Origin: a phage
Direction: 5' to 3' (one strand)
Sequence record: PV467748.1
Length of the DNA: 64,000 bases
Part shown: piece by piece, positions 18,018 to 54,720 of the stretch
How the letters are laid out: every line of letters starts with the position of its first letter
How positions within the stretch are numbered: position 1 is the stretch's first letter
Made by a program: the position numbers and the translations under genes
The notes under the pieces: model-generated
Database searches by the model: none
What the model saw: the letters and a program-made list of their open reading frames with translations, nothing else
Told to the model about the DNA's origin: nothing

Positions 18018-18221
18018 TTAGATTTCCTCAATGCGGGCATCATATTCAAAAACTTTATTATCATTAACAAAGGCTTTCACTAGTGCATTATTCACTTCTG
18101 CATACTGCACTGTAACCCATTCAATCATTTTTTGGTCACTAACATCCAGCGCAGTTTCTTTGGTAAACATATTACCATTTTCAAACCAACCAATAAACAC
18201 TACGTTCTCTAATTTATACAT
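18018..18221 (-). CDS. dmd: Dmd-like antitoxin (copy 1)
   Basis: VVFIGWFENGNMFTKE...VQYAEVNNALVKAFV matches remembered T4 Dmd. Confidence 0.75.
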   Translation of the reverse strand: MYKLENVVFIGWFENGNMFTKETALDVSDQKMIEWVTVQYAEVNNALVKAFVNDNKVFEYDARIEEI

Positions 18222-18416
18222 TTAGATTTCCTCAATACGGGCATCATGTTCATAAACTTCTACGTCGTCGACATACGCCTTAACCAAAATACTATTGACT
18301 TCAGCGAATTGGGTAGTCACCCACACGATATCGTTTTCACGCACTGAAGCTTCTTTGGTAGAGGTGTCGCCGTTATTAAAACAGCATACAAATTTTACCT
18401 TAACCAATTTAGTCAT
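18222..18416 (-). CDS. dmd: Dmd-like antitoxin (copy 2, diverged paralog)
   Basis: VKFVCCFNNGDTSTKE...TTQFAEVNSILVKAYV; both copies end ...DARIEEI. Confidence 0.7.
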   Translation of the reverse strand: MTKLVKVKFVCCFNNGDTSTKEASVRENDIVWVTTQFAEVNSILVKAYVDDVEVYEHDARIEEI

Positions 18417-20255: not shown

Positions 20256-20569
20256 CTCTTAGATTTAATTTTATCCAGTTCTTCTTGTATTTGCATTGTA
20301 ACACATTTTTCTACATGAAGCGCTAGCTCTTCTTTTCGGTCTTCGGAAGGTGTTCCGAAATCAACCGACACTTTTCCATCTTTCTCAATAACAATATTCA
20401 TCACATAAACGATGTGAGCAGTGCCATCAGGTAATGTAAGCATAATTTCCTGCTTAACAGAACCCATTGACTTACGGATTATATCTAATGATTTCTCATA
20501 ATAACGAGGGTCACTAGGACCCTCTTCGGTATCTTTAACAAAATTATCTAAATCAGATAAATCAGTCAT
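20240..20569 (-). CDS. 40: gp40-like protein (109 aa)
   Basis: position between 41 and uvsX as in T4; sequence not verified. Confidence 0.45.
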   Translation of the reverse strand: MTDLSDLDNFVKDTEEGPSDPRYYEKSLDIIRKSMGSVKQEIMLTLPDGTAHIVYVMNIVIEKDGKVSVDFGTPSEDRKEELALHVEKCVTMQIQEELDKIKSKRWWKW

Positions 20570-21743
20570 GGTCGCTCACAAAATTCATATTTTCTAAATC
20601 GTTTTCGATATCAGCTGCGCTTTGAGTGTCGCCACTCAATTTAACTGCAACGTTCTTAGAGACACGAGAGTTAATAAGGTCGTTCACCGCATCATCGACT
20701 TCTTTAATAGAATTAATTGCACCAAGCTTATACTTATTCTCGATTGCTTCACGGAACGGGGCATGTTTAAACAGTGGTCCCCAGAACTCGACACAATCGG
20801 TAGCTTTAGCACGCCATGATTTTTCTTCTTGAACCATTTCACCTGTGGTTTCGTCAAGGAATGCACGATTATACCAACCAGCTTTAGGTTTCACAACAAA
20901 GCCAATATCAGTAGCCATTTCAAGCAATCCACTGAATGGGTCGATACCACCTTCAAAGTTCACAGTAATTGGGAACGTTGATTTCTCTTTAACAGTACGA
21001 GATTTTTCGGCCTTCAGGGTGAAGTCATAACCAGTGAGCTCGGTGCCATCTTTAACCTGACGTTTAGAGATAAAGAATACGGTAGAAGCAGAGTACAGAA
21101 TACCGGTACCGCCACCCATAATCTCTTTAGGATACATTCCACCAATTTCCATAGCCGTATGGTTAATTGCTACACAAGGGATATCCTTGATGGTCAGATA
21201 AGGTGTTACGATACGGAACAGAGATTTCAGTGACTTAGCACGGGTCATATCACCTACAACTTTCTCGTTCAAAGCATCTTCGGTTTCTTTCTTAGAAGCG
21301 GTGTTACCGATGGAGTCGATAAAGATAATAACCTTTTCGCCACGAGTAATTTCTTCTAATTGGTTGGTCATATCAACTTTAAGCTGTTCGACTGACTGGA
21401 TTGGAGTATGGACTACTCGTTCCAAATCAACACCCATCGAACGGAAATAAGATTCTGAAGCACCAAACTCAGAGTCATAGAACAAACAAATTGCGTCTGG
21501 ATATTTCTTCATATATGCCGCAACCATGGTAAGTCCAAACAACGTTTTAAAGTGTTTAGATGGAGCAGCAAAGATTGTCAAACCTGATTGTAAGCCTGCA
21601 TTCAACGCACCGCCTAATGCAATATTCAGCATAGGGATACGAGTAGGAACTTCGTCACGACCATTAAACAATTTAGATTTGGTCAGGTCGGCAGTCATTT
21701 TAGAAGTAGAAGCTTTAATCAAACGGGATTTTAAATCAGACAT
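20562..21743 (-). CDS. uvsX: UvsX recombinase (RecA/Rad51-like)
   Basis: 393 aa; near-collinear with remembered T4 UvsX. Confidence 0.9.
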   Translation of the reverse strand: MSDLKSRLIKASTSKMTADLTKSKLFNGRDEVPTRIPMLNIALGGALNAGLQSGLTIFAAPSKHFKTLFGLTMVAAYMKKYPDAICLFYDSEFGASESYFRSMGVDLERVVHTPIQSVEQLKVDMTNQLEEITRGEKVIIFIDSIGNTASKKETEDALNEKVVGDMTRAKSLKSLFRIVTPYLTIKDIPCVAINHTAMEIGGMYPKEIMGGGTGILYSASTVFFISKRQVKDGTELTGYDFTLKAEKSRTVKEKSTFPITVNFEGGIDPFSGLLEMATDIGFVVKPKAGWYNRAFLDETTGEMVQEEKSWRAKATDCVEFWGPLFKHAPFREAIENKYKLGAINSIKEVDDAVNDLINSRVSKNVAVKLSGDTQSAADIENDLENMNFVSDHD

Positions 21744-21820: not shown

Positions 21821-22714
21821 TTAAAGGACCACGTCCTCATAACTTGGCATTTCGTGCTCAGAATGGATATGGGCACCGAAATAAATGAATTCAGCTAGAC
21901 CAGGATGGAATACTAAACCAGGATTCTCATGATAAATGATATGAGGTCTTGATTTCAGAATCTGATAATATTCAACCTTACTCGGTTTGAATTTAATAAT
22001 CTCTACATCAGGACGATAGTCTTCACGTTTAAATGAATCATTCGGATCGGTGATATAAAGACGAGCACCTTCAGCTGCAGCTTGGTCTACAACTCTTTCG
22101 AATTGATAGCACTTATCTGAAATACGGAATGGGTGGAAAATACCATCAATTTTAATAGGCGCTAGACCATCAGAGTAACGCTCAATTACTGCAGGATTAA
22201 TTACCTTTTGGTCTACAAAAATCTTATCAGAGGACGCACCTCGTGACACCAGGACGTCTTTCTGGCATTGGTTCAAGACCGTAGTATAAATCGAACGTTC
22301 AACTGAAGACACGTCGGTATCAATAAACTCATCGATGTAATAACGAGGAACTTCAGGGTCCATTGTAATGTTAAAGTTGAATTGTACAGTATGGGCACCA
22401 TCATAACCAGTGATATCGGTTACTAAGCCTGAGCAGTCATAGTATTCTATTAACGAATCAACAACGAACTCATTTTCGGACCAAAAATGTTTACGGGTTT
22501 CATAAGCATTTTCTTTATACCAAAGTGGTACGAAATTCAGTTCTGGGAATAATTCAATGCATTCTTTGATATCGCTCGAATTTCTAGGATAAGCCAGATA
22601 ATCACCTGGGCAAGCACGGTTTAAATGGAGTTGGAAATTACCGTCCTTAAGGACGGCATATTCACCTGTTTCGTAACTACGCATACTGAAAATAGGAACG
22701 ATAAACAAACTCAT
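21821..22714 (-). CDS. hypothetical protein (297 aa) in the beta-glucosyltransferase slot; candidate DNA glycosyl/modification transferase
   Basis: sits between uvsX and 42 where T4 has beta-gt, but does not resemble remembered T4 beta-gt. Confidence 0.3.
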   Translation of the reverse strand: MSLFIVPIFSMRSYETGEYAVLKDGNFQLHLNRACPGDYLAYPRNSSDIKECIELFPELNFVPLWYKENAYETRKHFWSENEFVVDSLIEYYDCSGLVTDITGYDGAHTVQFNFNITMDPEVPRYYIDEFIDTDVSSVERSIYTTVLNQCQKDVLVSRGASSDKIFVDQKVINPAVIERYSDGLAPIKIDGIFHPFRISDKCYQFERVVDQAAAEGARLYITDPNDSFKREDYRPDVEIIKFKPSKVEYYQILKSRPHIIYHENPGLVFHPGLAEFIYFGAHIHSEHEMPSYEDVVL

Positions 22715-23409
22715 TTCAGGAAACCTCGGACGTAGTCAAAATCACGTTCAAACACGTGTGCACTTACCATGGTGTGGGAATATGTACCTAAACCGACACC
22801 ACACTGTTCAGCAATAAAGGCCATCAGTTTACCCTGCAGATAGAAATCCAGCTGCATAACAATAGCACAGTTCTGTGAACGCATATGGGTATGTGCATAA
22901 AGACGTCCATCACGAATATAATATGTTACCGAATCGGTACATGGATATTCTAAGGATTCGTCAGAATCAAGGAGGGCTTGGTCTTGTTCTTGGAGAATCT
23001 GGAACACAACGCGTCTTGAGTTAGGTTTCTCTTTAAGCTCTTTAAGTAGGGCTGGGAGTTGGGCCACAATTCGGGGTCCATAGAAAGTGTTGAAGTTTGC
23101 AGGCAATACGTCACTTTTCGGCTTATCAATGAACTTAGCAACATTAGGATATTCCTTAAATGCTTCGGCGGCGTCAGTACCACCGGAAATCATAAACTTC
23201 CAGAAAGATTCGGCATAATCATAGTTGATACGATTAATACGAGGGTCGGTGAACTTGAATGTGCTTGCATCCAGTACTTCAACTGAAGCAGAACCAATTT
23301 CATAACAACGGCCGATACGAGAATCAACTGCAAACTGTGGAGCTTCCAGGATTTCTTCGTTCATTTGCTTAAACGCGTTTTCAAAACTAACAGCGGTAAT
23401 GTGTTTCAT
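22711..23409 (-). CDS. 42: dCMP hydroxymethylase (thymidylate-synthase fold)
   Basis: EYPCTDSVTYYIRDGRLYAHTHMRSQN aligns with remembered gp42 catalytic-Cys region; NSRRVVFQIL. Confidence 0.7.
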   Translation of the reverse strand: MKHITAVSFENAFKQMNEEILEAPQFAVDSRIGRCYEIGSASVEVLDASTFKFTDPRINRINYDYAESFWKFMISGGTDAAEAFKEYPNVAKFIDKPKSDVLPANFNTFYGPRIVAQLPALLKELKEKPNSRRVVFQILQEQDQALLDSDESLEYPCTDSVTYYIRDGRLYAHTHMRSQNCAIVMQLDFYLQGKLMAFIAEQCGVGLGTYSHTMVSAHVFERDFDYVRGFLK

Positions 23410-23948
23410 TTATTCACCTTATTTTCAATATATTCATTCAGACGTTTTAATTCTACCATATCGACGTTAAGCAAGTTATTATAACCGTCGTGATTTAAGA
23501 TTTTAAACACGTTTTCAAAACATGTTTCATATTGGCGGATAGTTAGGTTGAACTCATCTTTGGTTAATTTAATAAGGTCATCTTCAAAGTCTTTATCCAG
23601 TGGATTACGGGTTAAAATAACCTCAATAATATTGAATTCAGATTTAAACCTTTTCCAATCTTCCAGTTCTACATAAGGGTCCATTTCACCACGAAGGAAT
23701 CCCGAGTAAACAATATTACTTGGATAACCACGGTCAAGGATGTAAACGAAATTAGGGTCTAAAAACTTATACAACGTCTCGACTAAAGCCTTGTCATTAT
23801 CGGTCCCTAATGAAATGCATTTGCCATTAATCTTTTTAGGGAAATCAATAAGACGATATTTCTTATCAGAATCAGATAAAAGCGATTCAATTAAAGTAGA
23901 CTTCCCGGAATTATCCGGGCCGTCGATAACAATGATTTTTGGTTTCAC
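23406..23948 (-). CDS. P-loop nucleotide kinase, thymidylate-kinase-like
   Basis: Walker A IIVIDGPDNSGKSTLI; Tmk-like LDRGYPSNIVYSG motif; no counterpart at this position in T4. Confidence 0.6.
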   Translation of the reverse strand: MKPKIIVIDGPDNSGKSTLIESLLSDSDKKYRLIDFPKKINGKCISLGTDNDKALVETLYKFLDPNFVYILDRGYPSNIVYSGFLRGEMDPYVELEDWKRFKSEFNIIEVILTRNPLDKDFEDDLIKLTKDEFNLTIRQYETCFENVFKILNHDGYNNLLNVDMVELKRLNEYIENKVNK

Positions 23949-24319
23949 GGATGATATGCCTTATAGGTTTCAAGAGTTCCTTCACGAACCATTTCTTTAA
24001 AGTGGTCAGGACGGATTGCTCGGTCATCGATGATAAAAGTATAACTTGGTTTATGCGTAAGCAAATTATGATATTTCAAACCAATCTTTTCAAGGTTCTT
24101 AACCAATGCGGGAACTACTTCAACTAAGATTCGACCCGGGCCGCATGAAGTCATGCCACGAGCAGTGAACAACGTAATCTCGTGGCCTTCATCATAAAGC
24201 TTATTAATCATGGACACCATTTCGGTGTCAGGTTTAAAGTTTTCGTAATCACGATTAGAGTCCCAGACCGTGATTGTGTTATCGATATCAAAACACAGAT
24301 GCATTAAATTTTCTTCCAT
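23945..24319 (-). CDS. HAD-superfamily phosphatase (small, capless)
   Basis: motif I CFDIDNTIT (DxDxT), motif II LFTAR, motif IV IIDD. Confidence 0.6.
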   Translation of the reverse strand: MEENLMHLCFDIDNTITVWDSNRDYENFKPDTEMVSMINKLYDEGHEITLFTARGMTSCGPGRILVEVVPALVKNLEKIGLKYHNLLTHKPSYTFIIDDRAIRPDHFKEMVREGTLETYKAYHP

Positions 24320-26007
24320 TGTTTGTGGAGTTCAGTAGAACCTGTAGGTTTATATTTTACACCGGTTTCCTGGTCAAGCAAAACCCACTTATCAGGACAA
24401 CGAGTGATAATTTGAGCCGTGATAGGGCCACGAACTTCATCGACAAATTCACCTGTAATAAGCTTACGCTTACGAGGATGCCGCTTCAGCAGCACACTCA
24501 GTTGGTATAGACCGTTGTAATAAGCACCCAGAGCTTTCAGAGGATTATTCTTAAAGTAACCTGCCAGTGCCATCCAAATAACGGCAATCCAGAGCTTGTG
24601 CTTAAATGTACACATCGGAATATCATCTAAAGACATAACCTTTTCAATATCAACGAATACACGAGTTCCGTTACGAGTTAATCCGCCCCATAGAGGGTCA
24701 GAGTTAAATTTGTCATAGCCATCGATAGAATAAAGCACCTTAGCTTCGTCATAAATCGCAGGGCCTTTAGAACTATTACCAAAATAACCACGTGGGTCGA
24801 TGATTTTAATATCACCTTCGTCCGACAACATAATATTACTGTAGTGCGGGTCACCATGAATAAGTTGGTATGGTTCTTTATGTTCAGACAGAATTTCTAG
24901 TGCATGGCGAAGAAGTTTTTCAGGGTCGCCTACCTTAAAGTCGTTAACATGGGTAATACCCTGTGGGGCAAAGCCTTCAATCAATCCGGCAATAGAAGCA
25001 TTACGAATCAGGACCTTGTCCAATACTTCTTTCTTAACATCAGAATACCATTGCTCATCGGACGGATTATCGATAGTTCCACCGAATGAACGTAATGCAC
25101 TAATGACCTTATAAACCATGAGGACTTTAGTTTCTTTAGACATAAACCGATAGGCATCTGCCATGGTGCGACCAAAGATACGTTCCATTTTAATGAATTC
25201 GCCTGGAGCAAAGTCTACAATGCTCGGAACAAATTCAGAATCAATAGAATTATACCAATTGATTTCTTTAGATTGGATTTCTTTACCTAATTCGTTGGTA
25301 GGTACTTTAATAGCCAGATTCTCAGTGAACTCTAATTTATTAAATTCACGGTTAATTTCAGAATCTTCATGGGCCCTAGCCAGTTTCAATTTGTCACCGA
25401 CATCAACCACAAAGTCCAGCTTACGTTCAGTCAAATGGACCATCGAATCCAGGTTGTCTGCAAGGTCTTCGCCATAATTAGAACGGTCGAAACCTGTCCA
25501 ATTAGCCACCTGATACAAACCAACCACACCACCGCCAGTACCAATTTCACGCAAGTACGGTTCTTCAAATGTAAAACGACAGTCGGTCCCATAGGTATAA
25601 CAGTAGTCGTTATCCCACTCAACTTTATGACCTTCAGGAATAATATCACACCAGTTAAACAAGACATTATGCCCGATGATATCTTCGGCAATGCAATCGA
25701 TAGCATGAGCTGAACCATTGGCGACGTCTACGTTACGAATAGTGAATTTAGGCTTATCACTGGTAATCATGTTAATGGATTTAATGTAACCCTTAACGAG
25801 GTCATTAAATTTGCTGTGAATAACCAGAATAATTTCATCTGATTGGTTACTATACAAATCATACAAATGTTTTAGTACTGTATGCTGTTTGTAGTTAACC
25901 AATACCTTCGGGATTTCGTTAGTAATTGGATACAACCGTGAGCCAAGACCCGCTCCTAAAATAACAACCTTTTTCATTATCTGTTCCTCAAGTGAATGTA
26001 GGTACAT
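24304..26007 (-). CDS. bifunctional nucleotidyltransferase (N-term) / small-molecule kinase (C-term) fusion, 567 aa
   Basis: N-term VVILGAGLGSRLYPITNEIPKVLV (sugar- or choline-phosphate nucleotidyltransferase signature); C-term HGDPHYSNIML...IKIIDP (APH/choline-kinase-like catalytic loop). Confidence 0.65.
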   Translation of the reverse strand: MYLHSLEEQIMKKVVILGAGLGSRLYPITNEIPKVLVNYKQHTVLKHLYDLYSNQSDEIILVIHSKFNDLVKGYIKSINMITSDKPKFTIRNVDVANGSAHAIDCIAEDIIGHNVLFNWCDIIPEGHKVEWDNDYCYTYGTDCRFTFEEPYLREIGTGGGVVGLYQVANWTGFDRSNYGEDLADNLDSMVHLTERKLDFVVDVGDKLKLARAHEDSEINREFNKLEFTENLAIKVPTNELGKEIQSKEINWYNSIDSEFVPSIVDFAPGEFIKMERIFGRTMADAYRFMSKETKVLMVYKVISALRSFGGTIDNPSDEQWYSDVKKEVLDKVLIRNASIAGLIEGFAPQGITHVNDFKVGDPEKLLRHALEILSEHKEPYQLIHGDPHYSNIMLSDEGDIKIIDPRGYFGNSSKGPAIYDEAKVLYSIDGYDKFNSDPLWGGLTRNGTRVFVDIEKVMSLDDIPMCTFKHKLWIAVIWMALAGYFKNNPLKALGAYYNGLYQLSVLLKRHPRKRKLITGEFVDEVRGPITAQIITRCPDKWVLLDQETGVKYKPTGSTELHKQWKKI

Positions 26008-26037: not shown

Positions 26038-26538
26038 TTAAATCTTATCTTTACCGATTTCAATACACTGTTCTATTGCCGCCGGTACTTTGGTCTTGAG
26101 CTTATCGATTTGTTTCTTATAATCACGAGCTTTACCGAAGCTCTCGGTTTCGAGCATTTCGTAATAACGAGCCTCGTGGATGGAAATCTGTAGATTGATA
26201 TGATTTACACACATCGCATACAGTTTCTGCTTTTTGTACAAATCATCTTGACGCTTCATTTCTGCCTGGTGTTTGGCTAGTACCGCTTCACGCTTAGACT
26301 CTTGTTCACGTTGGAATTCGATTTCCCTTTGAGCATATTTTGCACAGTTATTACCGCATTGATTATTAGCTCGGGTATACACAAGTCCGGAACCAGCACG
26401 GAATTTCATTTCACCGTCATATTGTTTCTGTTCAGCTGCGATACGAGCTTTACCAACTTCATCAGCCGAAACTGCATCGCCATATTGGACCGCGCAACCT
26501 GATAGGAGCATACTCATTGCGATAATTAACTTTTTCAT
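26038..26538 (-). CDS. predicted lipoprotein (166 aa)
   Basis: signal peptide with lipobox LSGC; helical, charged remainder. Confidence 0.5.
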   Translation of the reverse strand: MKKLIIAMSMLLSGCAVQYGDAVSADEVGKARIAAEQKQYDGEMKFRAGSGLVYTRANNQCGNNCAKYAQREIEFQREQESKREAVLAKHQAEMKRQDDLYKKQKLYAMCVNHINLQISIHEARYYEMLETESFGKARDYKKQIDKLKTKVPAAIEQCIEIGKDKI

Positions 26539-35232: not shown

Positions 35233-35470
35233 CCTTGATGCATGATTCAGCCATATGAATTAATGTTTCTGGAGTATCATCTACCATTACATTAAAGCTA
35301 AATTCTACAGCCCAATCAGTGGCAACATAAACTTTAATAAGCTCGTTGGTATCACGAGTGCTCACGGCTTCAAACCAGAACTTAATAATACTCGTTTGTC
35401 CATCGTCATCAATAACTGTGCAGTCATGCTCCAGTTCAAGTCCTGATTTTTTGAATTCATCTAAAGTCAT
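35207..35470 (-). CDS. hypothetical protein (87 aa)
   Basis: ORF only. Confidence 0.4.
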   Translation of the reverse strand: MTLDEFKKSGLELEHDCTVIDDDGQTSIIKFWFEAVSTRDTNELIKVYVATDWAVEFSFNVMVDDTPETLIHMAESCIKDAYNDENV

Positions 35471-36489
35471 CGTGTAACCTCATTATAAAGTTGTGCAGCC
35501 ATAGTCTTAAGGGCTTTAACATCGTCTTCGGTGTGACCATCAGGAAGGGCATCGATATAATCATACATCATATCCAAGAGGGACTTAACTTCATCTTCCT
35601 CTTCAGAATCATCGATATCAACGCTGTTATCTACCTTAGACACAATACGTAAAGAGTGAACAACCTTTTCAAGTTCAGATTCGAACTTGGTAAGCCCGTC
35701 ATCAATTTTATCGACTATAACACGAACCGCAATATTTGTAAAATCTTTGTAATCGATAGTCGCATTCGGGTAATGAATCTTACGATGCCAACAGGTTTCA
35801 TTGATGATGAAATCCATTTTATGCGTTTCTGTATCGAAAATCCAGAAGCCACGAGGGTCGTTCTCATCACCGGCAGTTAGGGTCCATGGCGTACCAATAT
35901 ACTTAACGTTTGCCGCATCAGAAATGGTGTGGAAGTGGCCAGACCATACTTGCTTATACTTCTTAAGGAAATCAGGTTCTAAACCATGTGATTTCATTCC
36001 TTTATAGAAATAGAAACCATTTAATTCCCAGTGGCCAATACAGAAATCTGCTGTAGTATTTTTGATATGGTCCATGATATCGGTCGTGTTTTCTTCACAC
36101 ATCCATGGAATCAAATCAATTTCGGTGCCATCAAAGTTAACCGTAGTAGGTTTTTCAATAACCTTGATATGGTCGTATTTACCCAGAACTTCAGAAGCCG
36201 CGTTCGGCGTCAGGGTGTTTTTGTAGTGCATATCATGGTTGCCAACGATAGTATACATGGTAATGCCGTTGGCTTTAAGCAAATCAGAGATTTCGCGAGC
36301 GAATTCCATACACTTATGGGTAATTGCTTTACGAACGTCAAAGATATCACCGTATTGAATCCATACAGTAATGCCATTTGCTTTAGAATAATTAATAGCG
36401 TCTTGGATACCTTGACGTTGGATATTTTGTACCCACACATCATCGGCCTTCACTCCAAGGTGCCAGTCACCTGTGTTTAATATTTTCAT
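35467..36489 (-). CDS. 47: recombination endonuclease subunit (Mre11/SbcD-like phosphoesterase), start refined to MKILNTGDWHLG
   Basis: GDWHLG, GNHD, GHFH phosphoesterase motifs. Confidence 0.9.
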   Translation of the reverse strand: MKILNTGDWHLGVKADDVWVQNIQRQGIQDAINYSKANGITVWIQYGDIFDVRKAITHKCMEFAREISDLLKANGITMYTIVGNHDMHYKNTLTPNAASEVLGKYDHIKVIEKPTTVNFDGTEIDLIPWMCEENTTDIMDHIKNTTADFCIGHWELNGFYFYKGMKSHGLEPDFLKKYKQVWSGHFHTISDAANVKYIGTPWTLTAGDENDPRGFWIFDTETHKMDFIINETCWHRKIHYPNATIDYKDFTNIAVRVIVDKIDDGLTKFESELEKVVHSLRIVSKVDNSVDIDDSEEEDEVKSLLDMMYDYIDALPDGHTEDDVKALKTMAAQLYNEVTR

Positions 36490-36629
36490 AAGCCAAGCAC
36501 CGTTATTGCAATGCAAAATAAAATTATTGAAATGACCCCGTCAGGAGTGGAAAAGAATCCTATCCAACAAGCTCGTGTGAATGTGTAGAATGCCATGAAT
36601 AACACGACATATCCTAAAAGTAGTTCCAT
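36486..36629 (-). CDS. small hydrophobic peptide (47 aa), not in the ORF track
   Basis: SD GAGGAG before ATG at 36629; stop overlaps gene 47 start (ATGA). Confidence 0.35.
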   Translation of the reverse strand: MELLLGYVVLFMAFYTFTRACWIGFFSTPDGVISIILFCIAITVLGL

Positions 36630-36639
36630 ATGTTCTCCT

Positions 36640-36678
36640 CAGTTGGTTCATTTTATCATCCGAATATAAAGCAAAAAA
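36640..36678 (-). promoter_or_regulatory. candidate MotA-dependent middle promoter
   Basis: minus TTTGCTTTAT followed ~12 nt later by TAAAAT; directly after the terminator hairpin. Confidence 0.35.
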
Positions 36679-36696
36679 GGAGCCTAAGCTCCTTTA
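36672..36696 (-). terminator. hairpin aggagc-ctaa-gctcct
   Basis: inverted repeat with U-run on the transcript. Confidence 0.45.
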
Positions 36697-36915
36697 CCAA
36701 CTAATACACCATACAGAGGTTCATGAGAAGACCTGAACTTAATAGGCTTATATGTAATAGTACCTTCGTTTTCTGCTTTAATACGAGCGGCTTCAAATTT
36801 AAGAATCATCTCGTTTTTGTCAGATTTAATCTTATCAAAATCCATCGAATTCGTCATTCATACGACCTCTTAAACTTTTTCGTATTCGTCATTCATTAGC
36901 CTGCAGTCCATGTTA

Positions 36916-37116
36916 TCATCGCTGCCACCATTTCTTAAGTTGATGCGAATCTACCCAAACCTTGGCTACGGGCTCAATCCGAAAAATTCCATCGGAATAC
37001 TGGCCGACCATTTTGTATTCGGTTTCGGACTGCTTAATACAGATATTACCGTATGAGCGAAGTCTAAAGGCGGCTCCAATAAGAAGCCGTTTAAAGGGTT
37101 TATTTACTAGAGCCAT
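36916..37116 (-). CDS. hypothetical protein (66 aa)
   Basis: ORF only. Confidence 0.35.
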   Translation of the reverse strand: MALVNKPFKRLLIGAAFRLRSYGNICIKQSETEYKMVGQYSDGIFRIEPVAKVWVDSHQLKKWWQR

Positions 37117-37411
37117 TGACGATTTCCCAAATTTGTTTGCGGGTAGATTCCCACATCAATTGAACAAGTTCATCAGTAACAGGTTGACGGTAAATACCAC
37201 GTAATTTAATTAAAGCGTACTTATATGCTTCAAAGTTGTTTTCAAGTACAGCGCCTTGGGCATGGAGATTTAAACGACGGATTTCACGAGCATTCTTCTT
37301 AAGAATCTTAGCCGCTTGCGAATTAGCTTCTTTAATATTGTGCTCTTCTAAACGTTGCTGGGCTTCTTCAATTTGCTCATCAGTCAATTGAGAAATGTCA
37401 TGGCTTTGCAT
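37100..37411 (-). CDS. hypothetical protein (103 aa)
   Basis: ORF only. Confidence 0.4.
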   Translation of the reverse strand: MQSHDISQLTDEQIEEAQQRLEEHNIKEANSQAAKILKKNAREIRRLNLHAQGAVLENNFEAYKYALIKLRGIYRQPVTDELVQLMWESTRKQIWEIVNGSSK

Positions 37412-37412
37412 A

Positions 37413-37643
37413 TTAATCCTTTGGAGTCAATTCAATAGTGAAGTAGAAATTAGCGTTCTCAACATGATAACGATAATCTACGTTATTGTCAGGAGAAGTG
37501 AATTCAATATTCCTGACGTTAAGTGGGTCAATATCAATAGGAAGACCTTTAACATCCCGTAATATCAATTTAATAAAATAAGGGAGTGCTTCGAAGTCTT
37601 CCATTCCATCTAAAAGTGGAGTGATATTAATCTGATGTTCCAT
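37413..37643 (-). CDS. hypothetical protein (~76 aa), start uncertain
   Basis: overlaps the 3' end of gene 55; no clear SD. Confidence 0.3.
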
Positions 37644-38184
37644 ATAAAAAATCCAGTTCACCAACTTTAGGTTCGGCACTCTTATCAGACCCTGGTGCTT
37701 TAGTTAAAGAGGTTTCATACTGTGTCATTTTATCGTAGATATCTTGGATAAAGGTTTCATCTGCAATACCTACCATATCGTCATCATTACTGTCGTAGAC
37801 ATTATGGACGAAGTAGCTATATTTCTTTGCCATTTCTTTACGTTCTTTTTTGATACGCTGAACGAAGGCATTAAAACAAGCCATAGTGATATATGCATGT
37901 GGGTTGTCGTATTTTGTTTCGTCGAAGTTGTGAAGACCTTTAATAGAAGCTTCGATTCCATCAGAAATCATTTCTTGCTTCCAGGATTGGGTATATCCTG
38001 AGAAGTTGAAACGTTTACTTAGTCCTTCAGCAATGAGCATAATAGCCAAGCCTATAACGTCGTTCTGACGAACTATTTTATTTGGATCGGTATTTTCTCT
38101 GAGCTCTGTTTTCCATTGGGTAATAGCTTTCAGAAGCTCCTTATTATTTACATAATTATTTTTAGTCAGTTTAATTTCGGTCAT
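37627..38184 (-). CDS. 55: late-transcription sigma factor
   Basis: 185 aa; NYVNNKELL...[34 protein letters not shown] near-identical to remembered T4 gp55. Confidence 0.95.
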
Positions 38185-43070: not shown

Positions 43071-43263
43071 ATTTGTGCTTACAATGACGGCATTTATACT
43101 GAAGAGGGTTATGACGCCAATAAGTCAATTGGACCTGTTCAGTTCCACATTCAGGACAATTTGGAACATTCTTAGAAGCTCGTTCGCGACGTTCTACAAT
43201 TTTAATAATTTGATTCCAATCAGGAATACTTTGGTCGATATCATCGGCTAATTGGTATTTCAT
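43042..43263 (-). CDS. zinc-ribbon protein (73 aa)
   Basis: CPECG...CRHCKH. Confidence 0.4.
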
Positions 43264-44270
43264 TTCAACAGCTCCAGAGCTTGTTCAAGACGGTCTAAAC
43301 GATTGGTAGACTCTTCCCAAAGTTTCTTGGCAGCGGTATATTGGCCAGCCAGTTTTTTGTTAATAGCAAGGGCATCTTTATACGCTTTTTCTAAGGCAAC
43401 GATTTCCGGTAACTTGGATTTAGTAATTGGTGTAGGAGCCATGATAGGGCTGTTCAAGTCGTTAATCAAGTCTTCTAATGTAGCAGGCTCTTTATCAGTA
43501 TTCACAATTTCCTCACATTTTTCTTGGTAAATTTCGGCGTCAGTTTTTGGAACAGGGCATTTGATTTCGCGAACTGTTACCAAAACTTCATATCCTTTCC
43601 AGCCTAAGTGGTGTTTAACTTCTTGGGTCTCATATTTCTCTACGGTATCCATCAAAGCTAAGGCTTGTTCGATAGTATTCAAGGTATCGTAAGCAATATC
43701 TTGATACTTTACAACTTCCGCATCATCTTTAGGTTTCCTATTAGGTGACCAAATAACAGAAATAATAGCTTTTCCTTTATAACTATTTGTTTTAATCATG
43801 CAATTAGCCATCGGGTGAATAGTACGGCAATCACCGGAAACTATAGTTTTAGAGGCCGCTTTGAGAATTAATGCAGAGTTAGCCTTGAATTCGCTAACCC
43901 AACGTTGCGGAAATAAACTACTAGGGTCCATACCTTTAATTTTGATATAACTATTTATGGTATCACCAAACCATTTGTAGCTAACAACACGGTTGGAACC
44001 TGGGTGTTTCTCTTTGCCAAACTCTGAAAGGATGTCCTTATTGACCAGTCGCGAAAGCAGTCGAGAACCTTTAAATGTTTTAATGATATCATGAATGCAC
44101 AAACGGCCTGCAATCTTTTCGATTTCAGCTTTGAAACAGCGCGATAATGCATCATCAATTTGGTCGACCCATTTATTGATATTAGAAACTATTACCACAT
44201 ATGGGGTTAATGGAGGGGTATTGGCAGTGATATACGTAGTAAAGGCATTGATGTATTCGGTACGGGTCAT
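43260..44270 (-). CDS. hypothetical protein (336 aa; start refined) with C-terminal coiled coil
   Basis: ATG at 44270 with SD GGAG; promoter element at 44285-44335. Confidence 0.5.
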   Translation of the reverse strand: MTRTEYINAFTTYITANTPPLTPYVVIVSNINKWVDQIDDALSRCFKAEIEKIAGRLCIHDIIKTFKGSRLLSRLVNKDILSEFGKEKHPGSNRVVSYKWFGDTINSYIKIKGMDPSSLFPQRWVSEFKANSALILKAASKTIVSGDCRTIHPMANCMIKTNSYKGKAIISVIWSPNRKPKDDAEVVKYQDIAYDTLNTIEQALALMDTVEKYETQEVKHHLGWKGYEVLVTVREIKCPVPKTDAEIYQEKCEEIVNTDKEPATLEDLINDLNSPIMAPTPITKSKLPEIVALEKAYKDALAINKKLAGQYTAAKKLWEESTNRLDRLEQALELLK

Positions 44271-44329
44271 GATATTCTCCTCAGTAGTTGATAAAAGGAT
44301 TATACTCCATCCGTCCTTGGATGTAAACA

Positions 44330-45199
44330 TTATTTTAGAGCTAATAGTGCCGCGCGAAGCTTGTCACGTTGGGCTTCCATATTCTTGATGCTATTCAGAA
44401 CGTCTTGAATACTCTTTTTCTCATCTTCAATCTGACCATTTAAACGGTGGATTGATTCCTGAATGCTATCTGCATAATAGGTCTCAATAGGTTTCATCGT
44501 AGGGTTAGTAACAACCAAAGAATTATCAGGTTTAATTTTCCAATGATACGGTTCTGAATTGAATGGCCTCGGCACAGCAGTGGTTTTGAATTTGTCATAA
44601 GTAGCATACTGACCTACAGGCCCATATGACGCAGTGGAGATTCGACGTTCCATTTGTGGTTCCTTTTGTTGGGATTGATAAGGGGCATAAGACAAAAGAT
44701 ATTCACGAGTTAGTTTAACATTAAAATACACCGCATCAGGCCGTCCGGAACAATCAGCATATTCATCGGTTGTAACCTTATATGATTCTACGGCCTTAAT
44801 ACGAGTCATTGCTTCTCTGAATAAGGTTTCGAATGCTTCACGAAGGGCCTTATTGCCTTTTGAGGTAGGACGGAAACGAACTTGGATACCGTCAGCCAGA
44901 ATATTAATGACTAGGTTACGAGCCGTAAAATTAATATTCTTGATATTGACAGGAACCGTAGAAATACGTCCTGCAGTAGCCAAGAGGTCTTTAATATTAG
45001 CTCGTAATGTCGCGCCAAATAAATGAGCTGGGCTACGGCAATAATCGTTCAAAGAACTAATATAAGTTCCTTTACGGCCTACGCCGTAAGTGTAGTTACC
45101 ATTACGAATCTGGCCGAAGTCGGCCAGCCGATCGATAGCGATACGACGTGTGGTATCAAAATCATATCGGGAATATTCTTTACGCGTTTTAATGTTCAT
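44330..45199 (-). CDS. hypothetical protein (~289 aa) with C-terminal coiled coil
   Basis: start uncertain (45199 or 45223). Confidence 0.4.
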   Translation of the reverse strand: MNIKTRKEYSRYDFDTTRRIAIDRLADFGQIRNGNYTYGVGRKGTYISSLNDYCRSPAHLFGATLRANIKDLLATAGRISTVPVNIKNINFTARNLVINILADGIQVRFRPTSKGNKALREAFETLFREAMTRIKAVESYKVTTDEYADCSGRPDAVYFNVKLTREYLLSYAPYQSQQKEPQMERRISTASYGPVGQYATYDKFKTTAVPRPFNSEPYHWKIKPDNSLVVTNPTMKPIETYYADSIQESIHRLNGQIEDEKKSIQDVLNSIKNMEAQRDKLRAALLALK

Positions 45200-45200
45200 A

Positions 45201-45401
45201 TTAAAGTCCAAATAATTTTTCATAGAATTTAGCTAAAGGCCAAGTCACAATAGAAACTATTCCAAATAAAGCAAGCACTGGCCAAATAAAGGTAGCGAAT
45301 ACTGCTTCGCCACCTGAGCTAATTTCCATATGTTTGCGGCCAATCAGAACAGTAATGAATCCTAATGCAAGGTACAGAAGAATAAAACCTGCGATTTCCA
45401 T
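45201..45401 (-). CDS. small membrane protein (66 aa)
   Basis: two hydrophobic segments. Confidence 0.4.
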   Translation of the reverse strand: MEIAGFILLYLALGFITVLIGRKHMEISSGGEAVFATFIWPVLALFGIVSIVTWPLAKFYEKLFGL

Positions 45402-52579: not shown

Positions 52580-53152
52580 TCAACTCGTTATTTCTATCCA
52601 GTGCTTCCTGCACAATGACACGTAAGAATCGTTGCCACCTATAGAAACTTGGGCTCCGTCCTTAATTGCGACACCATCTTGGACCCTAGCAGTCATAGTA
52701 GCTTTACGGCCGCAATGGCACACACCTTTGTACTCAACGAGTTTATCTGCCGTAGCGAGTAATTCAGCAGAACCAGGAAACAGTTTACCCTGAAAATCAG
52801 TTCTTAGCCCATAGCACATAACTGGAACATTATAATTGTCTACTATCTTTGCCAGTTGTTTTATCTGTGCAGGTTCTAAGAACTGTGCTTCATCCACAAA
52901 CACACAGTGGATATCTTTTTGAGATTCAGCCCAACGATAGAACTCGTATAGGTCCATATCCGGAGTCACTGCATTAGCCTCTTGACTAATCCCTATACGA
53001 GACGAAATGGTATGGCTTGATTCTCTATTGTCTATCGCAGGCTTTAAAAGGAGCACGCCCATACCACGTTCTTTGTAGTTATGAGCTGCCGTTAGCAATG
53101 AAGCGGTCTTACCTGAGTTCATTGCCGCATAGTGAAACATCAAACTTGCCAT
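52580..53152 (-). CDS. tk: thymidine kinase
   Basis: MASLMFHYAAMNSGKTASLL...VFVDEAQF...CHCGRKA collinear with remembered T4 Tk. Confidence 0.95.
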   Translation of the reverse strand: MASLMFHYAAMNSGKTASLLTAAHNYKERGMGVLLLKPAIDNRESSHTISSRIGISQEANAVTPDMDLYEFYRWAESQKDIHCVFVDEAQFLEPAQIKQLAKIVDNYNVPVMCYGLRTDFQGKLFPGSAELLATADKLVEYKGVCHCGRKATMTARVQDGVAIKDGAQVSIGGNDSYVSLCRKHWIEITS

Positions 53153-53877
53153 TTAGATACAATTCCTCTATAAGAACAATCAGGATAACCTTTATTCAGG
53201 GCTATCTTTTTAAACATATATGCCGAGGGCTTATTAGATTCTTCCCATAGCATTTTCAATTCGTCATAATATTTCCAAGCCTCATTTCTAATAGGAGAAG
53301 GTTTTCCTTTCATTGCACCTTGTTTACCAAACATAGGATTCTTTTCACCCTTTTTAGAATCACTCATGTTTTTAATAGTAGCACATGAATGCTTAAAGCC
53401 TTTTAATTTTTTAGAGGCTTGCCCTATTTTAGCTTTATGTTCGTCTGTAAACCCTATTCTATTTGAATAGTGGTTCTGGCCTTTATTAGAAGTAGTGTGT
53501 TTAGAAGCTTCTATCCTCGCGTCGCTCCATTTAACTCCTTTTTTAGACCTAGACATTTTATATTTGGTCAATAAAGATAACTTGGACCCTTTCTTTTTAC
53601 CACGTCCGCCATCAGCAAAATTTAAGGAATGTTTTCCATATTTTAATTTAGCTTTTTCTACTAAAGGAACTTCAGCGTCGTAAGCTTCATCCTCAGTTTC
53701 AAAGAATTTTAATATACGGGTTTTATAAGGGTGTTTTTTGCAAATATTTTTAACAACAGTACCACTTCCAAAATACCCATCAGAAAGATTATCGGTAGAA
53801 TGTTTTCCTACGTAATAATAGTTGGCCTTGAGGGTTTTTATTACAGTTAAATAATTATAATGGAATTCCTTTACCAT
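53140..53877 (-). mobile_element. free-standing GIY-YIG-type homing endonuclease-like gene (Seg-like)
   Basis: N-terminal YYYVGKHST...YFGSGT; basic C-terminal half with repeated NUMOD-like KKG...NPMFGK elements; overlaps tk start. Confidence 0.45.
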
Positions 53878-53886
53878 ATTACCTTC

Positions 53887-54081
53887 TTAAAGACTATTCA
53901 CATAAGCAATTAATTCATTTTCTTTTTTAGAAAACTCATCTTCTTCATCACCATACGCATCCCAAGGAAGAGAGTTATCTAATTCACATTCTGTATTGAG
54001 TTCCATAAGCTCATGGATAAGCTCAAACAATTTATCTTTCTGTTCTTTACTCAGACTCATAACCATTGCACCTTTAAGCAA
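53887..54081 (-). CDS. hypothetical protein (64 aa)
   Basis: ORF only. Confidence 0.35.
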   Translation of the reverse strand: MLKGAMVMSLSKEQKDKLFELIHELMELNTECELDNSLPWDAYGDEEDEFSKKENELIAYVNSL

Positions 54082-54269
54082 TATTCTTCTACATGCTGTT
54101 TACGTTTATTTTTATCTATAAAAGTATATTCAACATATTCACCGATATACCATTTATCAGTATTGTGTTGACTTTTTATAGGGCATTTAGTTACTCGTGT
54201 TTCGGTCCAGTGCCGAATAATTTCCGCTTTGTTTTTAGGGTCAAATGGATGCGGGTAATGTGCTTTCAT
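54057..54269 (-). CDS. hypothetical protein (70 aa)
   Basis: ORF only. Confidence 0.35.
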   Translation of the reverse strand: MKAHYPHPFDPKNKAEIIRHWTETRVTKCPIKSQHNTDKWYIGEYVEYTFIDKNKRKQHVEEYCLKVQWL

Positions 54270-54720
54270 AATCCACCACTATTAAATCAATATCAGGAGT
54301 AAACATGTCGATTAATTTAGAAACCTTGTCCCAATCACCGCCAGCAATACCACAACCTATACGAGGAATATAAATTCTTGGTTTAAACAAAAGGTCATTT
54401 GCTTGTAGATTTAATTCTATCATACAGTTTACTAAAGCACCGTAATCAAGATTAGGGCCTGGTTCGTATTGGGTATATAAATTATAGCACATTGCAAATC
54501 CATTAGGCTTATGTTTAAAAACAATAGACATATCACCTAATTTATCTCGAGAGCCGTATTCGGTAGTAGTCTTATCAATTTCTAAAATTTTAGGATAAGC
54601 TCTTGCTAATTGACCTGCTACACCTGAACCCATAGTGTGAAAACAGTTGCACCCATGTGCAATAATATTACCTTGGAGAAACAGGGCGACGATATCGCCC
54701 TTAATATAATTAATAATCAT
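54241..54720 (-). CDS. macro-domain-like protein (ADP-ribose binding/processing)
   Basis: GDIVALFLQGNIIAHGCNC...MGSGVAGQLA resembles the GDI...N-A-AN...GGGV-GAI macro signature. Confidence 0.45.
   Translation of the reverse strand: MIINYIKGDIVALFLQGNIIAHGCNCFHTMGSGVAGQLARAYPKILEIDKTTTEYGSRDKLGDMSIVFKHKPNGFAMCYNLYTQYEPGPNLDYGALVNCMIELNLQANDLLFKPRIYIPRIGCGIAGGDWDKVSKLIDMFTPDIDLIVVDYESTLPASI

Follow-up and report, generated by a model that had tools for sequence, protein, structure and literature searches.

In phage T4 the interval between uvsX and gene 42 holds the β-glucosyltransferase gene b-gt (the record reads uvsX-segA-b-gt-42-imm-43), and the question raised by the phage DNA analysed here (record PV467748.1; the whole stretch of 64,000 nucleotides is called the window below) is what has taken the place of this enzyme. 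As the first-pass annotation of the window had stated, the slot is filled by an open reading frame (ORF) of 297 amino acids (aa), which agrees with the ORF coordinates and with the T4 layout:

21821..22714, minus strand: 297-aa glycosyltransferase with a predicted GT-B fold, orthologue of RB69 gp46:47 and DLP3 gp79 ('arabinosyltransferase 1')

This ORF, confirmed with an ATG start, has uvsX on its downstream side (20562-21743; Pfam T4_UVSX_C and RecA) and on its upstream side the gene of a 232-aa thymidylate-synthase homologue (22711-23409), with which it shares a 4-nt overlap (ATGA). The window comes from a Dhakavirus, and 58.7 kb of it align to phage WG01 at 94.5% identity. Counterparts of the 297-aa protein at 97.6-99.3% identity, annotated as 'hypothetical proteins', occur in WG01, LHE83 and Salmonella phage ABTNLS3, and the same label stands in nearly every one of the 353 phage records that contain the gene. 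The protein is probably the base-proximal ('first') glycosyltransferase of the phage arabinosyl-5-hydroxycytosine pathway, a uridine diphosphate (UDP)-arabinofuranose:5-hydroxycytosine arabinosyltransferase, and it is the orthology, fold, synteny and co-occurrence observed here that carry the argument.

In phage RB69, ORF047c (69.8% identical) and ORF046c (64.0%) are collinear with the 297-aa protein, and these two ORFs have been described as a single gene broken by a sequencing error (Lee et al., NAR 2026, PMC13326640). Identity to RB69 is 67.6% over 99% of the query, and in BFVD the 297-aa protein matches both RB69 halves with template modelling (TM) scores of 0.96-0.97. These are full-length orthologues, at 64-70% identity in RB69 and about 50% in the Acinetobacter phages, and the RB69 and DLP3 proteins have the structural matches 6kih and 3c4q in common with the 297-aa protein. 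In this system, RB69 gp46:47 and DLP3 gp79 have been named 'arabinosyltransferase 1' and are proposed to add the first, alpha-linked arabinofuranose to the base; the arabinose of RB69 and DLP3 DNA is ether-bonded to 5-hydroxycytosine (5hoC), not to 5-hydroxymethylcytosine (hmC), and there is no methylene bridge (PMC13326640). The modified nucleotide, 5-hydroxy-deoxycytidine monophosphate (5-hydroxy-dCMP or 5hodCMP), is made by the thymidylate-synthase homologues RB69 gp48 and DLP3 gp80, with the activity of gp48 demonstrated, and Dhakaviruses are among the genera listed for the syntenic cluster (PMC13326640). Family, position and predicted role were already known from publications of 2025-2026, Dhakaviruses included. 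Earlier, RB69 ORF003c alone had been proposed as a transferase (PMC6024577), and several phage groups with sugar genes were described that 'yet lack any known arabinosyl transferases' (PMC8056088). That puzzle is resolved by the gp46:47 family. As a citing paper relates, Mahler et al. in 2025 reportedly deleted an arabinosyltransferase, 'Aat', in Bas46, and this name is probably related to arabinosyltransferase 1.

At the level of sequence, the first-pass annotation was right that no glycosyltransferase motif can be recognised in the protein. No Pfam family was matched at E<=0.1, and thus no Glycos_transf_1; the one PHROG match, PHROG 3891, is of 'unknown function'; PDB sequences gave no match to the single sequence or to a 92-member profile (with the profile, nothing below E 0.2); and BLASTP and hhalign found no similarity to T4 α-glucosyltransferase (a-gt), T4 b-gt or RB69 gp3, with a best BLASTP E of 19 against T4 b-gt and an hhalign probability of 0.2% for the family against RB69 gp3 and T4 a-gt. 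Structure prediction and comparison with glycosyltransferase folds, which the same annotation had proposed as a check, gave a GT-B fold. The AlphaFold2 model, built on the family alignment of 92 sequences that also served for residue conservation, has a mean predicted local distance difference test (pLDDT) score of 95.9 and a predicted TM-score (pTM) of 0.90, and is composed of two alternating strand-helix (Rossmann-like beta/alpha/beta) domains, residues 1-181 and 192-295, with a cleft between them. In Foldseek the best TM-scores of the model (0.57-0.60) are to the GT4 transferases MshA and BshA, and its best E-values are to UDP-N-acetylglucosamine (UDP-GlcNAc) 2-epimerases, which share the GT-B fold. 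The model thus supports a glycosyltransferase of the GT-B class, so that the description of the protein as unrelated to β-glucosyltransferase stands for the sequence but not for the fold, the GT-B class being common to the 297-aa protein, T4 a-gt and T4 b-gt.

Throughout the 92 sequences, M11, R12, D24-G25-N26 and R74 are invariant in the N-terminal (acceptor) domain, and F193, P195-F196-R197, D200, Y203, T222-D223-P224-N225, K246 and H270-P271-G272 in the C-terminal (donor) domain, where position 275 is always E or D. In the predicted structure, strands of the C-terminal domain pass into helices at R197, K246 and E275, and to judge from position only, R197, K246 and E/D275 may occupy the sites at which GT4 enzymes hold the diphosphate and ribose. 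Retaining GT4 enzymes (sucrose-phosphate synthase 6kih, BshA 6n1x, PimA 2gej and MshA 3c4q) are 7-15% identical to the protein, and their E-X7-E motif is not canonical in it, as the residue eight positions before E275 is neither conserved nor acidic, whereas H270-P-G is invariant. The protein also differs from T4 a-gt (PDB 1y6f) and b-gt, to which it has no detectable sequence similarity, in being about 50-100 residues shorter and acidic, not basic, and in its substrates, with the T4 enzymes using hmC and UDP-glucose and the 297-aa protein, as predicted, 5hoC and UDP-arabinofuranose. The second arabinosyltransferase, represented by RB69 gp3 and HY126 glycosyltransferase 9iqz, has 366 aa and no sequence relationship to the 297-aa protein.

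The transferase gene is the last of a five-gene cassette whose members overlap stop to start and are transcribed in the order AfhE-like, AfhF-like, kinase, synthase, transferase. The other four are:

22711..23409, minus strand: 232-aa thymidylate-synthase homologue, predicted 5-hydroxy-dCMP synthase (identity to RB69 gp48, D169N, PDB 9iqu/9iqc)
23406..23948, minus strand: 180-aa thymidylate-kinase (TMK)-like P-loop kinase, homologue of RB69 gp45 (PHROG 761; weak Pfam Thymidylate_kin and AAA matches; 38% identical to RB69 gp45)
23945..24319, minus strand: 124-aa AfhF-like HAD phosphatase, predicted to convert arabinofuranose-1,5-bisphosphate to arabinofuranose-1-phosphate (64% identical to RB69 gp51; PDB 9iqw, E 1e-54)
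24304..25977, minus strand: AfhE-like bifunctional NTP-transferase and APH-type kinase, predicted arabinose-5-phosphate (Ara5P) 1-kinase and UDP-arabinose pyrophosphorylase (Pfam NTP_transferase and APH)

The same neighbours, namely 5hodCMP synthase, TMK-like kinase, AfhF-like and AfhE-like genes, accompany the transferase in RB69 and DLP3, with the difference that the kinase lies upstream of the synthase in the window and downstream of the transferase in the RB69/DLP3 system.

It is the synthase that bears on the acceptor. This protein is 78.9% identical to RB69 gp48 and 26% to T4 gp42, and its matches in the PDB are 9iqu/9iqc at E 5e-126 as against E 3e-6 for T4 gp42 (1b49). As in RB69 gp48, residues L143E, C146, D169N and N177D are present (E. 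coli ThyA numbering), whereas T4 and PS2 gp42 keep D169. The D169N exchange has been given as the signature of 5hodCMP synthases by Lee et al. (PMC13326640). By these sequence criteria the neighbouring 'gene 42' is of the 5hodCMP-synthase type and not a dCMP hydroxymethylase, and the presence of an N169 synthase beside the transferase argues for 5hoC, not hmC, as the acceptor. In close relatives, the gene at 22711-23409 is labelled thymidylate synthase or dCMP hydroxymethylase. The view taken in the first-pass annotation, of a DNA-modifying transferase fed by the donor of the adjacent cassette, is therefore partly supported: it was right in substance on the transferase and its supply, as the GT-B fold, the sugar-nucleotide neighbours and the named RB69 orthologue indicate, and it erred in its choice of acceptor and in what it took 'gene 42' to be. 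An hmC acceptor is contradicted by N169 and the 79% identity to RB69 gp48, and hmC-containing DNA, the proposed assay material, would be the wrong substrate beside a synthase of the 5-hydroxy-dCMP type.

The donor would come from the AfhE-like and AfhF-like enzymes. UDP-arabinose is reported to be formed from arabinofuranose-5-phosphate via AfhE and AfhF, including HY126 AfhF (He et al. as summarised in PMC13326640). The AfhE-like protein of the window is 41-44% identical to RB69 gp52 and gp53; its longest ORF reaches 26007 (567 aa), but the true start is probably M11 at 25977 (557 aa), as the PHROG alignment begins at residue 11, the WG01 annotation has 557 aa, and a TATAAT hexamer overlaps the upstream ATG. 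Four RB69 proteins have no counterpart in the cluster, nor a homologue anywhere in the window: the Ara5P isomerase gp55, the U32-like gp50, gp49 and the second transferase gp3. In E. coli, Ara5P is supplied by KdsD and GutQ, and the minimal five-gene cassette of the Dhakavirus presumably draws its Ara5P from the host.

The absence of gp3 extends beyond the window. Homologues of gp3 in the phage collection fall only in a band of at least 95% identity (Mosigviruses) or one below 60% (Acinetobacter phages), and judging by these identity bands none belongs to a Dhakavirus record; among Escherichia phage records, 137 have gp3 and 137 the isomerase, as compared with 177 that have the first transferase. 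No hidden second transferase was found among the larger unassigned ORFs of the window with Pfam and PHROGs. One candidate, a 356-aa ORF (43260-44330), was rejected as an nrdC.4 homologue about 45% identical to those of T4-type phages; beside it (43260-45223, minus strand) stands another 297-aa ORF, which matches DUF7235 and is unrelated to the transferase. The other T4 slot, described in the first-pass annotation as devoid of a-gt, is indeed so:

36486..37679, minus strand: interval between genes 47 and 55, with only homologues of T4 47.1, a-gt.2, a-gt.3, a-gt.4 and a-gt.5, and without a-gt and mobB

In T4 the corresponding order is 47-47.1-a-gt-mobB-a-gt.2...55. Between gp47 (35467-36516) and gp55 (37627-38184) of the window there are solely ORFs of 47-103 aa, and tblastn of T4 a-gt, T4 b-gt, PS2 b-gt and ba-gt gave zero matches across the whole 64 kb. 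With no homologue of a-gt, b-gt, ba-gt or gp3 in the window, no transferase candidate other than the 297-aa protein came to light, and since the genus lacks a second transferase, a single arabinose is predicted (mono-arabinosylation). Another phage with one glycosyltransferase at the syntenic position, Thanatos, is reported to be mono-arabinosylated (PMC13326640).

Co-occurrence ties the transferase to its neighbours well beyond this genus. Over 50,697 phage records, the transferase was found in 353, the kinase in 344 and the AfhE-like gene in 368, with equal counts of all three in phages named for Escherichia (177), Acinetobacter (57), Shigella (15), Enterobacter (9), Enterobacteria (8), Proteus (7), Yersinia (6) and Salmonella (3); kinase and transferase counts are equal for 8 of the 10 listed genus names. 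The order ThyA homologue (N169)-transferase-kinase is kept in two phage-like contigs, 355 and 383 kb long, in which identity is only 39%. A Flavodoxin_2 (FMN-dependent reductase-like) gene lies near this trio in both contigs (L008 1-523; L009 6426-6932), in keeping with reports that the synthase depends on flavin for its hydroxylation, and SIS- and APH-domain genes lie near it in one. Rhizobium phage RL38J1 is tabulated with the same trio and a hexose as its sugar (PMC13326640), which suggests that the transferase family is defined by acceptor rather than by sugar.

An exhaustive profile search of the transferase family gave 244 cluster representatives at E<=1e-3, among which are metagenomic relatives fused to a kinase in both orders: transferase-kinase in P0211, P0212, P0219, P0232, P0247 and P0249, and kinase-transferase in P0217. 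The kinase domain is TMK-like, with the motif EGFDRIGKD[TS] and a Pfam Thymidylate_kin match on P0211; the kinase identity of these extensions is read from the common P-loop motif and weak Pfam matches, and phmmer with the kinase and the HAD protein of the window gave no match in the fused relatives. In other members (P0131, P0143, P0148, P0151, P0163 and P0175), the transferase domain is preceded at its N-terminus by about 185 further residues that carry HAD-phosphatase motifs (DFDGIF ... GDS ... GDDxYD). Two fusion loci were L012 8001-9662 and L014 5412-7064, the latter with SIS, AfhE-like and U32-like genes as well. Beside these kinase-transferase fusions there is a Peptidase_U32 protein (L012 10179-11276; L014 10053-11153) that is 46-48% identical to RB69 gp50 (ORF050c, L002 5837-7006), and tblastn for a thymidylate-synthase homologue in both loci gave none. 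RlhA and TrhP, which hydroxylate pyrimidines at C5 independently of oxygen, belong to the U32 family, and the phage U32 protein might be an alternative cytosine hydroxylase.

We infer the donor, the level of the acceptor, the stereochemistry and the number of sugars, and the pathway may be pictured as follows. The adjacent ThyA homologue, in view of its 79% identity to RB69 gp48 and its D169N, would convert dCMP to 5-hydroxy-dCMP, which would be phosphorylated and take the place of dC in replicated DNA. The AfhE-like and AfhF-like enzymes would convert host D-arabinose-5-phosphate, for which the phage itself encodes no isomerase, to UDP-arabinofuranose, and this would be bound in the C-terminal Rossmann domain of the 297-aa GT-B enzyme. 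One arabinofuranose would then pass to the cytosine 5-hydroxyl, most likely, as the T4 glucosyltransferases suggest by analogy, on DNA after replication, to give mono-arabinosyl-5-hydroxycytosine and DNA that would be shielded from restriction and DNA-targeting CRISPR.

Several points weigh against this reading, and some of them bear on where the first sugar is added. Single DLP3 glycosyltransferases, given 5hoC-containing DNA with UDP-arabinofuranose or UDP-arabinopyranose, made no transfer, and the authors leave undecided whether it is the mononucleotide or the DNA that receives the first arabinose (PMC13326640). Enzymatic activity of the 297-aa family is not reported in the accessible literature, and a literature search found no chemical analysis of Dhakavirus DNA. 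The 297-aa protein is also very acidic, with an isoelectric point (pI) of 4.87 and a net charge of -18.6 (family median pI 5.2; 9.05 for T4 b-gt and 6.1 for T4 a-gt). It is possible, though unlikely, that the same enzyme with the same donor acts on 5-hydroxy-dCMP, -dCDP or -dCTP, with the kinase phosphorylating the arabinosylated nucleotide and the polymerase incorporating glycosylated dCTP, in a pre-replicative pathway. The strongly acidic character and the negative in vitro tests on 5hoC-DNA, with the level left open by their authors (PMC13326640), fit such a route, as do the fusions to a TMK-like kinase in either order and the almost one-to-one occurrence of kinase and transferase, adjacent even in very distant contigs. 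The kinase is moreover redundant with the T4 gp1-type deoxynucleoside monophosphate (dNMP) kinase, which is encoded by WG01 and is enough to phosphorylate 5hodCMP in RB69 (PMC13326640). Fusions, however, attest to linkage in a pathway and not to a common substrate, and HAD phosphatases are fused to the transferase too. The characterised phage DNA glycosyltransferases all act on DNA, as is established for T4 a-gt and b-gt, and DLP3 gp76 with gp77 adds arabinose to RB69 DNA in vitro (PMC13326640). Expression of gp48 with the dNMP kinase led to incorporation of unglycosylated 5-hydroxydeoxycytidine in DNA (PMC13326640), so an acceptor at the DNA level exists.

Doubt of another kind attaches to the catalytic class, as UDP-GlcNAc 2-epimerases, and not transferases, head the Foldseek list, and the proposed donor-site residues were placed by where they fall among the predicted strands and helices, not by structural alignment. 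That the protein is an epimerase-like GT-B enzyme that modifies a nucleotide sugar, as a relative of UDP-GlcNAc 2-epimerase, is nonetheless very improbable: TM-scores are higher to GT4 transferases (0.57-0.60), Pfam Epimerase_2 is not matched, and the genus would keep a complete 5hoC and UDP-arabinose cassette and yet have zero transferases, when in Thanatos the single glycosyltransferase at the syntenic position goes with mono-arabinosylation (PMC13326640). There is hardly any likelihood that the protein is a functional analogue of T4 β-glucosyltransferase that glycosylates hmC in DNA, even if it has the map position and the fold class of that enzyme and a distant family homologue adjoins a true T4-type gp42 in the Muldoonviruses. 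The only thymidylate-synthase homologue that adjoins it is 79% identical to RB69 gp48 and, like the 5-hydroxy-dCMP synthases, has N at position 169, where T4 and PS2 gp42 have D, and in RB69 and DLP3 the sugar is on the 5-hydroxyl, without a methylene bridge (PMC13326640). The Muldoonvirus homologue has 308 aa (L006 4001-4927 in Serratia phage PS2; L007 4001-4927 in Cronobacter phage VP8) and is 26% identical over the N-terminal domain (E 4e-15), with a full-length fold match of TM 0.76 to the Muldoon protein. It follows T4-type gp42 (D169, 58% identical to T4 gp42) and precedes ba-gt and b-gt, which means that the family is not confined to 5hoC phages. Muldoonviruses have three transferase candidates each.

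A scan for promoters and terminators returned sites no commoner than in shuffled sequence. Elsewhere in the window, between imm and the arabinosylation cassette, a 166-aa ORF (26038-26538, minus strand; PHROG 1754, function unknown) has a lipoprotein-like N-terminus (MKKLIIAMSMLLSGC). At 18018-18416 (minus strand), adjacent ORFs of 67 and 64 aa are clear paralogues with the common end ...DARIEEI, in the part of the genome where WG01 has dmd. The stretch 53148-54593, which does not align to WG01 and contains a 245-aa ORF (53140-53877) with a NUMOD3 motif, is probably a homing-endonuclease insertion.

What the analysis adds to the published family is a corrected annotation for two genes that are widely mislabelled, a predicted minimal system that adds one arabinose and relies on Ara5P from the host, and the evidence of the fusions on where the first sugar is added. 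Assays of the transferase would need UDP-arabinofuranose as donor and a 5hoC substrate, in place of UDP-glucose and hmC DNA. If the pre-replicative reading were true, the glycosylated base would enter DNA via the nucleotide pool and not by post-replicative transfer, for which we know of no earlier case. With arabinosyltransferase and 5-hydroxy-dCMP synthase correctly named as a pair, the DNA chemistry of therapeutic T4-like phages, among them Dhakavirus, Mosigvirus, Klebsiella and Acinetobacter phages, would become predictable from sequence, as 5-hydroxycytosine and not hmC, with one, two or three arabinoses, and with it how sensitive these phages are predicted to be to restriction, CRISPR, glycosylase and type IV defences.
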